7,347 nucleotides of DNA from a virus (lineage: Duplodnaviria; Heunggongvirae; Uroviricota; Caudoviricetes), in the IMG/VR virus record IMGVR_UViG_2671180433_000009, positions 1 through 7,347 of that record, one strand, 5' to 3'. The translations under genes were made by a program, and so were the position numbers. Position 1 is the stretch's first letter, and every line of letters starts with the position of its first letter. The notes beneath the pieces were generated by a model. That model was not told the DNA's origin. It worked only from the letters and a program-made list of their open reading frames with translations, and searched no databases. Below, in pieces: positions 390 to 7,347 of this stretch.

Positions 390-1986
390 TCAACGAATAC
401 TGATGCCGGAAGCAGCTTTTTTGGTCACAATCACCGTACAGTCGGTGATATTGCCTGCCCCCTGATTGCCTTTCTGGAAAATCTTAAACTCCAGAGTGAC
501 GCTACCACCACCACTAGGCATATCAATAACTGCACTGTAACTACCGGGAATGGCCCCTTTAGTTTCTCTGGATGCGATTAATACGCCGTTTTTGCGAACT
601 TCAAAACCATAACCCGTGTATCGCGTGCCTCCTGGGTTATTTCCGCTCCCCGGATCGTCATACGCTATACCGTTAAAAATAATGGGCGGAATAATAATCT
701 GGCGGTCAAAGTTATGATCATCGCTGATGGTGACTGTAACCGTACCGTTTGGTGTTTCCGTGTTACCCCACGTACCGACTTTTTTCGGGAAGGCTTTTGA
801 TACAGCTTTAACGAAATCCCCTCTGACCTGGGTCGCCTCCAGCATGCCCTTAATCGTACAGTTCTGGTTAATCGTGACATTGTTGAGCGCTCCTGAGTTC
901 GCATTCACACTGCCACTGATATCCGCATTTTTCGCCGTCAGTCGCCCGTCTGGTGTCAGGGAAAATGCCGGAGGATTACCGCCGCTGGTAATGGTGGGAG
1001 CCGTCAGATATTTCAGGAACACTTCATTCATGAATATCTGATCGCCCTGACCAACAAACATCGGCTTTGTGTTGCCATTCGCAGGATTAATCATCGCAAT
1101 CCTGTCTGCTGCCAGCAGCACCTGACTCTGCATGCCGTCGGGGGTGTTCTCAATACCGGCACCGATACCCGCAATATAAAGGCGTCCGTCCTGCATCTGC
1201 TGCAGCTTCACTGCCCACATGCTGTTCAGGTTATTATTTGTATCAACCTGAACCTTCTGTATCTGCTGGATCGCTGCACTCTGGTCTTCCAGTTTCTTAT
1301 TGACGGTCTGTGTTATTTCATTGCTGACATCCGTTATGGACGTCCTGATTTCAGTCAGGTCAGGCGCAAGCTGACCGTTATCAATCTGCGTCCACAGCTC
1401 CTGAGCCAGATGGGTTTTCCCTATCTCGCCTTTGAAAAAATCCAGATAGCCGGATGCATCATCACTCGGCTGACCAACAGCCTCCACGAATGCCGATTTG
1501 CCAACGGTGTTCACACTGCGGATATAAAAGTAATAATCATGGCCCGGTTTGATATTGATACTGGCGGCTATCCAGTACAGCCCCGTGCCAAGGTAGCGGG
1601 CTGTGGTTTCAACCTGCCTGATATCGGTAATCCGCGTTTCCGAAAACCAGAACTCAAACTGTACCGTCGGGTCATACACCGCAAGACGCGGGACCGCTGT
1701 TATCTGAAAATAGCCCGGTGTCAGCTCAATCGTGGCGGGTACCGCAGGTGCATTAATCCTGAACGTGGTGGTGGCCGGTTCCCCCTGCTGGCCATAACTG
1801 TTAATTGCCCTGACTGTCAGGGTGTATTCCCCGAGCGGCAGACCACTGAAACGATGCTCTGTATCCGCAGTGATGGCGGTGGTCACCAGACGGCTGTCTT
1901 CTCCGCTTCCGTTGGTCAGGCGCAGACTGAAGCGCACACCCTTCACCACCCGCGGCGTGTCCCATTTCGCCTGTGCCAGATACTGA
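390..1986 (-). CDS. J: Host-specificity protein J (central tail fibre) allele A, 3' fragment: FN3-like region, central region and complete C-terminal receptor-binding module with native stop; 5'-truncated, no convincing start or RBS
   Basis: Track ORF 390..1949 (519 aa; its reported start is a GTG, not ATG). J homology in the same frame begins at the codon at 1983-1985 ([23 protein letters not shown]...). Encoded motifs such as [59 protein letters not shown] and [31 protein letters not shown] closely match lambda gpJ as I recall it. Ends ...[10 protein letters not shown] then stop at 390-392. Homology breaks at 1986/1987, where it abuts the stop codon of the allele-B copy. Confidence 0.8.
1050..1986. 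repeat. Direct repeat R1, copy 1 (937 bp; J allele A FN3/central region)
   Basis: Matches 5902-6838 at a constant offset of 4852 bp. Identical at every stretch I compared by eye (1201-1260, 1801-1920, both ends). Encoded J protein segments are identical, and the antisense ORFs 1410..1994 and 6262..6909 share their first 192 aa. Identity ends at 1049/5901 and 1987/6839. Confidence 0.9.
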
Positions 1987-4299
1987 TCAGCTAATCGTGA
2001 TGCCTGCAGTGGCTTTCTTCATCACCACAACCAGCAAATCGCTGATACTTGCTGTGGGATACCAGTTATTTACCAGCCATGCTGACACCGAAAACTCCAG
2101 TGTCATGTGACCGTGACCGGCAGGCATATCAATAACGCCACTGTAAATCAGCGTATTATCCAGCGCGGTACGGTTATAAATTTCAGCACCGTTTTTCCGC
2201 ACTATCAGACGGCATGAGGAGTAAATATCAGTATGCTCTCTCTCATGCTTAGCGCCACTGAATGCCACCGCCGGAATAACAATCTGCCGGTCAAACGGCT
2301 GATCATCATAAACCCTGACGGTAATGCTCCCTGATGGCCACCGCTCCGGTGCACGGGAGTCCCGGGGGAAAGCTTTGCCCACTGTTTTAACGAGATCGCC
2401 TTCAATCTGGTTCGCGGACAGTTTTCCCAGAACCCGACAGTTCTCGTTAATCGTGACGTTGTTGAGCGTCCCGGAATTCGCATTCACGTTACCGCTGATA
2501 TCAGCATTTCTTGCGGTCAGCCTGCCCTCCGGCGTCAGGGAAAACGTCGGGGGATTGCCGGACGAGGTGATACTCACCGCAAACAGCCGCTTCAGGAACA
2601 CATCGTTCATGAACAACTGATTCCCCTGCGCCACAAATAACGGCGTGGTGTTGCCGTCCTCCGGGTTAATCATCGCAATACGGTCAGCCAGCAGCAGTAT
2701 GTTGCTCAGGGGCTGGCCATCAGTATCCTCAATCCCCGCTCCAATACCGGCAACATAGGGTATGCCATTTTTTGTTTTCTGTACCTTCAGCATGTAAAGT
2801 GCAGCCAGGTCATCATTTGTGTCCTTCTGCACGCGCTGTATCTGCTGTATGGTGGCGCTCTGGTCCTCCAGCGTTTTACTGACCGTCTGTGTGATTTCAT
2901 TGCGGGTTTCTGTGATGGTGGTCTTCATCTCCGCCATCTCATCTGCAAGCTGGCTGTTATCTATCAGTTCCCACAACCCCTGAGCCAGATGCAGTTTTCC
3001 TATTTTTTCCCGGAACAGCCCCAGATACCCTTCTGCATCATTGCTGGCCCGGCCACTGGCTTCCACAAAAGCAGATTTCCCCACCAGGTTGACGCTGCGC
3101 ACGTAAAACCAGAAATCCTTCCCGGGCTTAATGTGCGGGCCGGATACACTCCACTGACTGCCGGTCCCCAGATAACGGGCAGAGGTTTCCACCTGAGATG
3201 TATCTGCGATTTTTGTCTCCGAAAACCAGAACTCAAACTGTACCGTCGGGTCATACACCGCAAGACGCGGGACCGCTGTTATCTGAAAATAGCCCGGTGT
3301 CAGCTCAATCGTGGCGGGTACCGCAGGTGCATTAATCCTGAACGTGGTGGTGGCCGGTTCCCCCTGCTGGCCATAACTGTTAATTGCCCTGACTGTCAGG
3401 GTGTATTCCCCGAGCGGCAGACCACTGAAACGATGCTCTGTATCCGCAGTGATGGCGGTGGTCACCAGACGGCTGTCTTCTCCGCTTCCGCTGGTCAGGC
3501 GCAGACTGAAGCGCACACCCTTCACCACCCGCGGCGTGTCCCATTTCGCCTGTGCCAGATACTGGCCGTCAGCTGCGCTCACCTCCACCGTCAGGTGCTG
3601 CACTGCCGGAGGGATGACGCTGTTCAGGGTGCCGCTCTGGTCGCCGTCAAAGTGCGCCCCGTTATCCACGATGGCTTCTTTCTCCGGCACGTGCTGCACC
3701 GCCGTGATGGCAAAGGTGCCGTCCGTGTTTTCCCGGATGGAGACACAGCGGAACAGGCGACGACGCAGTGACGGCAGGGAGAGTCCCCATACACCGTATG
3801 TCTCCACACCATCAGGCAGGGTGCTGACCTGTATCCGGTCCGGCGCGGGGTGTGCGGTGATGTCCACACTCACCGGCTTACCGCTGCCGTTAATCAGGTT
3901 CACCGTGGCGGCACCGGTCTCCGGCAGTGTCACCTCACGGTCCAGCGTCAGGGTGCGGCTGGCGGCATCGATGGACAGGACACGTCCGCCGGTCATGGTC
4001 CCGGCATAGTCGTTATCACAGATTTCAATGATGTCACCGGGTGTGTGACGCAGCCCCTGTGACCCGAGCGTGAAATCCACCGTCTGCGTTTCCAGCTGTC
4101 CGGTCTTTATCACCCACAGCCCGGCACGGTGGGCCTGACCGCGACTGGTGCAGCCGAACGCATCCATCTTCAGCAGGTTGCGCCCGTAGCGCAGTATGGC
4201 TTCCGGGTCTTCCACCAGTTCCGTGGAGGTCTGCCAGCCGTTCTGCGGGTCGGTGTAATTCACCTCCACCGCCGTGTGAGGCAACATAGGGTATGCCAT
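1987..4299 (-). CDS. J: Host-specificity protein J allele B, 3' two-thirds (770-aa ORF) with complete C-terminal receptor-binding module; 5'-truncated, ATG created at a junction
   Basis: Track ORF 1987..4299. After a junction-derived MAYPMLPH it reads [32 protein letters not shown]...[43 protein letters not shown]..., colinear with lambda gpJ from its AVEVNWIDP region to the C-terminus. Ends ...[14 protein letters not shown] then stop at 1987-1989. The C-terminal roughly 250 aa differ strongly from allele A. Confidence 0.8.
2749..4278. repeat. Tandem duplication R2, copy 1 (1530 bp; J allele B from AVEVNYT to NGIPYVA)
   Basis: Matches 4280-5806 head-to-tail at offset 1531 at the low end and 1528 at the high end (one 3-bp indel). 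Antisense ORFs 3000..3263 and 4531..4794 are identical. The upstream third of the unit carries scattered substitutions, mostly transitions, for example 3411-3510 versus 4942-5041. Confidence 0.85.
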
Positions 4300-5902
4300 T
4301 TTTTGTTTTCTGTACCTTCAGCATGTAAAGTGCAGCCAGGTCATCATTTGTGTCCTTCTGCACGCGCTGTATCTGCTGTATGGTGGCGCTCTGGTCCTCC
4401 AGCGTTTTACTGACCGTCTGTGTGATTTCATTGCGGGTTTCTGTGATGGTGGTCTTCATCTCCGCCATCTCATCTGCAAGCTGGCTGTTATCTATCAGTT
4501 CCCACAACCCCTGAGCCAGATGCAGTTTTCCTATTTTTTCCCGGAACAGCCCCAGATACCCTTCTGCATCATTGCTGGCCCGGCCACTGGCTTCCACAAA
4601 AGCAGATTTCCCCACCAGGTTGACGCTGCGCACGTAAAACCAGAAATCCTTCCCGGGCTTAATGTGCGGGCCGGATACACTCCACTGACTGCCGGTCCCC
4701 AGATAACGGGCAGAGGTTTCCACCTGAGATGTATCTGCGATTTTTGTCTCCGAAAACCAGAACTCAAACTGTACCGTCGGGTCATACACCGCAAGACGCG
4801 GGACCGCTGTTATCTGAAAATAGCCCGGTGTCAGCTCAATCGTGGCGGGTACCGCAGGTGCATTAATCCTGAACGTGGTGGTGGCCGGTTCCCCCTGCTG
4901 GCCATAACTGTTAATCGCCCTGACCGTCAGGGTGTATTCCCCCGGCGGCAGACCGCTGAAACGGTGCTCTGTATCCGCGGTGATGGCGGTGGTCACCAGA
5001 CGGCTGTCCTGACCGCTTCCACTGGTCAGGCGCAGACTGAAGCGCACACCCTTCACCACCCGCGGCGTGTCCCATTTCGCCTGCGCCAGATACCGGCCGT
5101 CAGCTGCGCTCACCTCCACCGTCAGGTGCTGCACTGCCGGTGGGATGACGCTGTTCAGGGAACCTGACTGCGGCTCAAAGCGGGCACCGTTATCCACGAT
5201 GGCTTCTTTTTCCGGTACGTGCTGCACCGCCGTGATGGCAAAGGTGCCGTCCGTGTTTTCCCGGATGGAGACACAGCGGAACAGGCGACGGCGCAGTGAC
5301 GGCAGGGAGAGTCCCCACACCCCGTATGTCTCCACACCATCAGGCAGGGTACTGACCTGTATCCGGTCCGGCGCGGGGTGTGCGGTGATGTCCACACTCA
5401 CCGGCTTACCGCTGCCGTTAATCAGGTTCACCGCCGATGTACCTGTCTCCGGCAGGGTAACCTCACGGTCCAGCGTCAGGGTGCGGGTGGCAGCATCAAT
5501 GGACAGGACACGTCCGCCGGTCAGGGTCCCGGCATAGTCATTATCACAGATTTCAATAATGTCACCGGGTGTGTGCCGCAGCCCCTGAGACCCGAGCGTG
5601 AAATCCACCGTCTGCGTTTCCAGCAGTTCGGTCTTTATCACCCACAGTCCGGCACGGTGGGCCTGACCGCGGCTGGTACAGCCGAACGCGTCCATCTTCA
5701 GCAGGTTGCGTCCGTAGCGCAGTATGGCTTCCGGGTCTTCCACCAGTTCCGTGGAGGTCTGCCAGCCGTTCTGCGGGTCGGTGTAATTCACCTCCACCGC
5801 CGCGTGCCGGTCCTTCAGGGCACTGAAGCTGTAGCGGAACCCCACGCCGTTATCATCCACCACCACATCGCTGTTGGTGTACGGCCACACCACATCCGAC
5901 AA
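4034..5902 (-). CDS. J: Host-specificity protein J allele B, internal fragment (about 540 J-homologous codons, 4280-5901), truncated by a frameshift junction near 4279; lacks the C-terminal module
   Basis: Track ORF 4034..5902 (reported start is TTG). Encodes [42 protein letters not shown]... through ...[14 protein letters not shown], then 82 aa of out-of-frame sequence ([15 protein letters not shown]...) that is the next J copy read in the wrong frame, to a stop at 4034-4036. Confidence 0.75.
4280..5806. repeat. Tandem duplication R2, copy 2 (1527 bp)
   Basis: See copy 1. The copies abut with one extra nucleotide (4279), giving a frameshift between them. Confidence 0.85.
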
Positions 5903-7347
5903 CCAACAAACATCGGCTTTGTGTTGCCATTCGCAGGATTAATCATCGCAATCCTGTCTGCTGCCAGCAGCACCTGACTCTGCATGCCGTCGGGGGTGTT
6001 CTCAATACCGGCACCGATACCCGCAATATAAAGGCGTCCGTCCTGCATCTGCTGCAGCTTCACTGCCCACATGCTGTTCAGGTTATTATTTGTATCAACC
6101 TGAACCTTCTGTATCTGCTGGATCGCTGCACTCTGGTCTTCCAGTTTCTTATTGACGGTCTGTGTTATTTCATTGCTGACATCCGTTATGGACGTCCTGA
6201 TTTCAGTCAGGTCAGGCGCAAGCTGACCGTTATCAATCTGCGTCCACAGCTCCTGAGCCAGATGGGTTTTCCCTATCTCGCCTTTGAAAAAATCCAGATA
6301 GCCGGATGCATCATCACTCGGCTGACCAACAGCCTCCACGAATGCCGATTTGCCAACGGTGTTCACACTGCGGATATAAAAGTAATAATCATGGCCCGGT
6401 TTGATATTGATACTGGCGGCTATCCAGTACAGCCCCGTGCCAAGGTAGCGGGCTGTGGTTTCAACCTGCCTGATATCGGTAATCCGCGTTTCCGAAAACC
6501 AGAACTCAAACTGTACCGTCGGGTCATACACCGCAAGACGCGGGACCGCTGTTATCTGAAAATAGCCCGGTGTCAGCTCAATCGTGGCGGGTACCGCAGG
6601 TGCATTAATCCTGAACGTGGTGGTGGCCGGTTCCCCCTGCTGGCCATAACTGTTAATTGCCCTGACTGTCAGGGTGTATTCCCCGAGCGGCAGACCACTG
6701 AAACGATGCTCTGTATCCGCAGTGATGGCGGTGGTCACCAGACGGCTGTCTTCTCCGCTTCCGTTGGTCAGGCGCAGACTGAAGCGCACACCCTTCACCA
6801 CCCGCGGCGTGTCCCATTTCGCCTGTGCCAGATACTGACCGTCAGCCGCGCTCACCTCCACCGTCAGGTGCTGCACTGCCGGTGGAATAACGCTGTTCAG
6901 GGAACCTGACTGCGGCTCAAAGCTGGCCCCGTTATCCACAATGGCTTCTTTTTCCGGTACGTGCTGCACCGCCGTGATGGCAAAGGTGCCCTCCGTGTTT
7001 TCCCGGATGGAGACACAGCGGAACAGGCGACGACGCAGTGACGGCAGGGAGAGTCCCCATACACCGTATGTCTCCACACCATCAGGCAGGGTGCTGACCT
7101 GTATCCGGTCCGGCGCGGGGTGTGCAGTGATGTCCACACTCACCGGCTTACCGCTGCCGTTAATCAGGTTCACCGTGGCGGCACCGGTCTCCGGAAGTGT
7201 CACTTCACGGTCCAGCGTCAGGGTGCGGGTGGCAGCATCAATGGACAGGACACGTCCGCCGGTCATGGTCCCGGCATAGTCGTTATCACAGATTTCAATG
7301 ATGTCACCGGGTGTGTGACGCAGCCCCTGTGACCCGAGCGTGAAATC
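5815..7347 (-). CDS. J: Host-specificity protein J allele A, main reading frame entering from beyond the window end; J-homologous to 5902, then frameshifted with premature stop at 5815-5817
   Basis: Frame is open from window end 7347 (the track lists it from an internal ATG at 7266). Encodes [37 protein letters not shown]...[21 protein letters not shown]... through ...[13 protein letters not shown], identical in protein sequence to the 390-1986 copy over about 310 aa. After 5902 it reads [28 protein letters not shown] then stop: this is the upstream J region of the next copy read out of frame. Confidence 0.8.
5902..6838. repeat. Direct repeat R1, copy 2 (937 bp)
   Basis: See copy 1; same orientation, offset 4852 bp. 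Confidence 0.9.

Follow-up and report, generated by a model that had tools for sequence, protein, structure and literature searches.

The window, which is the whole 7347-nt stretch of DNA that was analyzed, is identical in extent to the entire public record CYBE01000123.1 (7347 bp) of the draft assembly GCA_001286205.1. All long open reading frames (ORFs) in the window are located on the minus strand, and all of them are parts of a lambda-type J gene, which is the tip attachment or host specificity gene. The genes called in this record carry the domain set of gpJ (PF13550, PF24421, PF24489, PF09327, and PF12421), and the last of them belongs to the Ail_Lom family. The record is composed of four contigs, designated c1 to c4, which are linked by single-N gaps (Table 1). 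The annotated J-lom locus of Escherichia coli O157:H7 strain 493/89 was used as the reference (L001) for the alignment of the window. Positions 1–1986 aligned without gaps to L001 4001–5986 with 99.2% identity, and positions 5902–7347 aligned without gaps to L001 5050–6495 with 97.7% identity; the identity was about 88% between 4280–5900 and L001 5227–6790, and about 83% between 1987–4278 and the same locus, in an alignment reaching up to L001 position 6696. The lom fragment is collinear with the annotated Ail/Lom gene that adjoins gpJ in strain 493/89. The pieces were collinear, in alignment, with the annotated gpJ of NZ_CP038412.1, which has lom downstream. This content resembles the lambdoid prophages of E. 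coli, in which the lambda gpJ gene is followed by lom, as all four pieces of the window are collinear with gpJ and lom comes after allele A, which is also the order in lambda.

The 519-amino acid (aa) ORF of c1 contains the Pfam domains Ig_J, Ig_J_second, Phage_Tail_Tip, and Ig_GpJ_C. The C-terminal 299 aa of both complete ends, which are those of alleles A and B2, match the lambda gpJ structures 8iyk and 9wca, and the E-values of the gpJ matches in the PDB are between 1e-85 and 1e-111. The last ~380 nt of alleles A and B2 (~125 codons; 390–770 versus 1987–2365) could not be aligned at the DNA level. As these ends cannot be aligned, yet both match gpJ receptor-binding ends, the strain has J genes with different tips, and this difference is the ordinary mosaicism of lambdoid J genes. 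Between the stop codon of J (390–392) and the start of lom (319) there is a G+C-rich hairpin at positions 350–367 (GGCGTCA TTCC TGACGCC), which has a run of A at one flank and a T-rich run at the opposite flank, and which was flagged on the plus strand by a scan. From its sequence, this hairpin looks like a two-way intrinsic terminator.

Table 1. Positions of the genes, contigs, gaps, and repeated stretches in the window
Feature	Position	Strand	Description
lom, 5′ part (Ail/Lom outer-membrane protein)	1–319	−	Called gene of 106 residues, PF06316 Ail_Lom, L003 7029–7347; clipped by the end of the record
Contig c1: 3′ part of J allele A, intergenic hairpin, and start of lom	1–1985	−	ORF 390–1949, stop codon 390–392
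Junction J1, scaffold gap N	1986		Middle of allele A meets the stop codon of allele B2; collinearity with J is lost
Contig c2: J allele B2, from about gpJ residue 395 to the stop codon (1987–1989)	1987–4278	−	ORF 1987–4299; different C-terminal receptor-binding end
Junction J2, scaffold gap N	4279		N in the public record, A in the window; break of collinearity
Contig c3: internal piece of J allele B1, about gpJ residues 364–905	4280–5900	−	Own start and own stop both absent
Junction J3, scaffold gap N	5901		N in the public record, A in the window; break of collinearity
Contig c4: upstream part of J allele A, gpJ residues 463 to about 944	5902–7347	−	Frame open up to the end of the record
Repeat copy 1, end of c1 that overlaps c4	1050–1985		Exact 936-nt run anchored at the contig end
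Repeat copy 2, end of c4 that overlaps c1	5902–6837		Exact run
Internal stretch of c2 identical to the low end of c3	2749–3384		636 nt
Low end of c3, flush with the N at 4279	4280–4915		Identical to c2 2749–3384

The sequence-only reading of the window had described a 937-bp direct repeat, with copies at 1050–1986 and 5902–6838 and a period of 4852 bp. This was confirmed by exact pairwise alignment and by self-BLAST of the window as supplied, in which 937 of 937 bases matched at an offset of 4852, with zero mismatches. No further exact run of 15 nt or more was found at this offset in the whole window, and the identity of 937 bases is far beyond what could arise by chance. The public record CYBE01000123.1 differs from the window at three positions, 1986, 4279, and 5901, where it has N and the window has the letter A. 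In the numbering of the record itself (L003), these are positions 5362, 3069, and 1447, where the reverse-complemented window has T. The determined part of the repeat is 936 nt long rather than 937, because position 1986 is an N, and the A substituted for it merely equals the real A of position 6838. All three N were rendered as A on the plus strand, and the gaps were therefore invisible to the earlier reader. The look-up of the predicted proteins agrees with this, as the exact 770-aa and 622-aa ORFs gave no match, because gene calling had used the record containing the Ns. In the whole gene-position collection the 519-aa ORF, which begins just past J1, is known from two contigs only, one in this assembly and one in the sister assembly described below.

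The repeats are closely tied to the gaps. Copy 1 of the 936-nt repeat abuts the N at 1986, and copy 2 begins right after the N at 5901. The window also contains a second perfect direct repeat, 636 nt long with an offset of 1531, which is flush with the N at 4279. The overlap of c2 and c3, which represent alleles B2 and B1, has 96.3% identity overall in 1530 nt according to self-BLAST. Hence, the estimate of roughly 97% identity that had been given for the other duplicated regions holds on average, but it passed over this perfect 636-nt run. The runs of perfect identity are fixed precisely to contig ends, which is expected of assembly overlaps, and the 636-nt repeat is likewise an overlap at a contig end, in this case of B2 with B1. 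Additionally, the last 107 nt of the record (7241–7347) are identical to 3971–4077 inside c2, which means that the end of the scaffold falls within a stretch common to J paralogues.

The breaks of collinearity with gpJ were mapped by alignment before they were compared with the N positions, and the data showed that they coincide exactly with the three Ns. When read along the gene, each junction is a backward jump of 1.5–1.7 kb within J, and no reading frame continues across J1, J2, or J3. The joints contain no meaningful homology, and one of them is located directly after a stop codon; c2 begins at its own stop codon, which is directly joined to mid-J sequence. An origin of the joints in a biological process or in engineering, such as template switching, microhomology, or engineered joints, was considered and rejected, as no useful homology was present and one joint lies exactly after the stop codon. 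Because the joints are occupied by Ns, the question of such an origin is moot.

When 200-nt probes over each junction were compared with 5,426 complete E. coli genomes, the adjacency of the two sides was absent from all of them. Only one probe match had coverage of at least 80% (H51), and in this match the two halves were 600 bp apart and in their natural order. It was rejected as a counterpart of the junction, because it corresponds to a J pseudogene with an internal deletion, the halves of which are naturally ordered. In the locus in question (L004 3001–5689; NZ_CP103972.1, complete genome of strain DLI.5a), J is present in two parts, namely a “DUF3672” ORF and a TipJ pseudogene that is truncated, and the internal deletion in DLI.5a places mid-J sequence within 600 bp of the end of J. 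This rearrangement is real, and it is unrelated to the junctions of the window.

The comparison with finished genomes showed what the separate pieces correspond to. When c4 and c1 were merged over their overlap, the product contained an open frame of 701 codons, which is collinear with gpJ residues 463–1163 with 7 aa differences, and which is then followed by lom. The merged sequence (2495 nt) matched the J-lom locus of O157:H7 strain 493/89 in one ungapped piece, over 100% of its length and with 98.5% identity. After this merging nothing biological distinguishes the window from a normal J-lom locus, and only the scaffold layout differs. Contig c2 had a one-piece match with 97.8% identity within ordinary gpJ genes of complete genomes, and c3 had a one-piece match with 98.5% identity within gpJ genes of complete genomes, in a different prophage than c2. 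For example, in strain 2571 a c2-like J is located at 3.63 Mb and a c3-like J at 2.87 Mb, in separate prophages. The matches of the whole window in complete genomes and phage records all collapse to about 2.8 kb, which is a single J-lom locus.

The number of J-like places in related complete E. coli is about 8–20 per genome or record, which also bears on the source of the alleles. They could have come from a mixed culture or from contaminating DNA instead of several prophages of one genome, and such a mixture would likewise give rise to parallel allele contigs that a scaffolder could chain, but nothing specific speaks in its favor. Related enterohemorrhagic-type E. coli hold 8–20 J-like places, and c2-like and c3-like alleles are found in different prophages of one strain. 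As a single genome has this many J-like places, a mixture is unnecessary, and we consider it exceedingly improbable.

The same abundance of J genes is relevant to the origin of c1 and c4. The scaffold could be an artifact in which these two contigs were derived from two prophages sharing an identical 936-nt J segment, and the repeat would then be real yet dispersed, with its copies hundreds of kilobases apart. The contig ends correspond to both ends of the shared stretch, as they would for an exact repeat with divergent flanks, and related complete genomes contain up to 14–20 J-like places each, both of which are in agreement with two prophages. Weaker support comes from the part of c4 above the repeat, which is more divergent from the locus of strain 493/89 (22 mismatches in 510 nt) than the part of c1 below the repeat (5 in 1049), although uneven divergence is normal in mosaic J genes. 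On the other hand, merged c4 and c1 match single J-lom loci in one piece, and their relative order and orientation are correct in both assemblies. Moreover, the overlap grows to 1061 nt in the sister assembly, which indicates that its ends are set by the reach of the extension and not by a fixed repeat boundary. A derivation of c1 and c4 from two prophages is thus unlikely, even if it deserves some weight. Whether these contigs came from one prophage or from two, neither the 4.85-kb spacing nor the “insert” is real.

In the sister assembly, GCA_001286145.1 (L002), the pieces follow one another as they do in the window, and positions 1614, 2980, and 5273 are single Ns. Compared with the corresponding contig of the window, the first contig of L002 reaches 125 nt deeper into allele A, and the perfect repeat of this assembly is 1061 nt long (553–1613 = 5274–6334) and flush with the Ns. 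The second contig of L002 has 112 nt of additional ordinary J sequence, which is identical to c2. The c2-like contig of the sister assembly (2981–5272) has the same size (2292 nt) and the same ends as c2, and the identity over c2 and c1 is 99.98%. Hence, at J3 and J2 the two assemblies disagree on one side or more, although the sequences next to the breaks are identical. Because the extensions in the sister assembly follow J, the natural continuation past J3 and J2 is ordinary J sequence, and the break points are set by assembly and not by biology. Judging by their accession numbers, the two assemblies may have been submitted in one batch, and they are probably close relatives that were processed alike. 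The contigs common to both that are 100% identical also make this likely, and in relatives processed alike the same false links would recur. In positions 2794–2979 of the sister assembly its second contig runs along J and then becomes an inverted copy of an upstream J segment, with 2890–2979 matching L001 6728–6817 in an orientation opposite to the rest. This looks like a hairpin-like chimeric contig end, and like another sign of assembly noise at J paralogues.

These data also bear on the possibility that the window represents a real tandem array of J fragments (A-upstream, B1, B2, A-downstream), made by illegitimate or template-switch recombination among prophages, in which the Ns are only unread spots. 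The recurrence of this order in two assemblies is the observation that speaks against an artifact, as on its face it could suggest a real shared structure. It could also be argued that the pieces were put together by the scaffolder on read-pair evidence, and that recombination between the repeat copies would restore an intact J. Formally, the window shares with real long direct repeats, such as those of tandem segmental duplications or Campbell-type integration, which are substrates for RecA, the X-Y-X layout and a perfect X. However, the boundaries between X and Y are Ns in the window, and its junctions are not conserved in the sister assembly. Novel junctions would be unique sequence that is easy to assemble, and yet all three are N. 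The first two breaks shift between the assemblies even though the sequence flanking them is identical, the junctions are absent from the 5,426 complete genomes, every frame is broken at the joints, and the perfect runs are anchored exactly at the contig ends. In a real tandem duplication, continuous sequence over the junctions and their independent recovery would be expected, and neither was observed here. We therefore regard a real array as highly improbable. If the array were real, it would disrupt J, and RecA-dependent deletion between the 936-nt perfect repeats could restore the gene. The further proposal that the strain carries an array of J fragments from three alleles upstream of lom, with RecA-dependent deletion acting as a reversible on/off or cassette-like host-range state, is so improbable that we give it almost no credence. 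A silent cassette or shufflon for a tail-fiber gene was also considered and rejected, as the frames are broken (the upstream J at J3), and neither inverted repeats nor a recombinase accompany them; no inverted repeats were found in the window, and no recombinase gene was found beside the array in the sister assembly.

Taken together, the sequence comparisons suggest, with a probability that we estimate at about 95%, that the window is a draft scaffold, assembled from short reads, in which contigs of paralogous J genes were joined, and not a continuous piece of genome, and that the repeat is a single J stretch written twice. The source strain would be an E. coli with several lambdoid prophages, each with one J (tail-tip, host-specificity) gene. 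The J paralogues would share long exact stretches, and the assembler would yield four partial J contigs from them. Read pairs in the shared stretches would link contigs from different prophages, so that a greedy scaffolder may chain parallel alleles head to tail, with all contigs in one orientation and one N carried by each join. Contigs c1 and c4 would then be the downstream and upstream parts of allele A, with their 936-nt overlap printed twice, 4852 nt apart, and the 3.9-kb “insert” between them would consist of pieces of B2 and B1, which are other J alleles of other prophages. A gap filler would presumably extend each contig edge along its own true continuation, and at a false join such extensions would never meet, which could leave a single residual N together with duplicated sequence.

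The features of the window are like those of false joins made by scaffolders and gap fillers (e.g., SSPACE and GapFiller), as it has single-N gaps, one orientation of the contigs, duplicates flush with the gaps, and parallel alleles placed in series. Furthermore, there is N at the joints, merging restores the locus, finished genomes lack the junctions, and the breaks vary between assemblies, as is characteristic of an artifact. Hence, the pattern is compatible with a scaffolder and a gap filler such as SSPACE and GapFiller, where the identity of the software is deduced from the pattern. SSPACE puts a single n where a negative gap cannot be merged. A search of full texts for the SSPACE rule behind single-N output returned no usable passage, and no literature was found on the two assembly accessions. 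According to a paper describing a widely used pipeline, SSPACE and GapFiller are greedy, and false joins are possible (PMC5320598). GapFiller extends base by base from both edges, and the gap is closed only when the extensions overlap (PMC3446322).

The interpretation of the window as a scaffold of paralogous contigs changes the meaning of the repeat. The sequence-only reading had named three possible sources, namely a very recent duplication, gene conversion, and an assembly that is collapsed or chimeric; of these, the chimeric assembly was essentially right, while a real X-Y-X structure is unsupported. It had also predicted that the 3.9-kb interior should be unstable through RecA-dependent recombination. 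This prediction does not stand, because the ends of the insert are N gaps, the junctions are absent from complete genomes, and the breaks are shifted in the sister assembly. As the spacing and the insert are artifactual, there is nothing to which the predicted instability could apply. The genes belong to the gpJ and Lom families and are ordinary among them, and scaffolding errors with this type of layout are known. The biology here is ordinary as well, with a single E. coli genome carrying several mosaic J alleles of lambdoid type, and the repeat around an insert is not a real feature. These observations show that single-N joins in a draft scaffold can mimic a striking perfect direct repeat around an “insert”. 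Their relevance is limited to quality control; when draft assemblies are scanned, Ns should be kept or flagged, and perfect repeats that end flush with former Ns should be treated as contig overlaps.

The longer sequence of the sister assembly also contains genes beyond the region covered by the window. Downstream of lom and the side tail-fiber genes, two large genes in positions 9404–15744 encode a 782-aa SopA/pentapeptide-repeat protein and a 1133-aa DUF4765 protein. In attaching-and-effacing E. coli, the ends of lambdoid prophages typically carry type III effector genes of this sort, which suggests that the strains belong to this pathotype.
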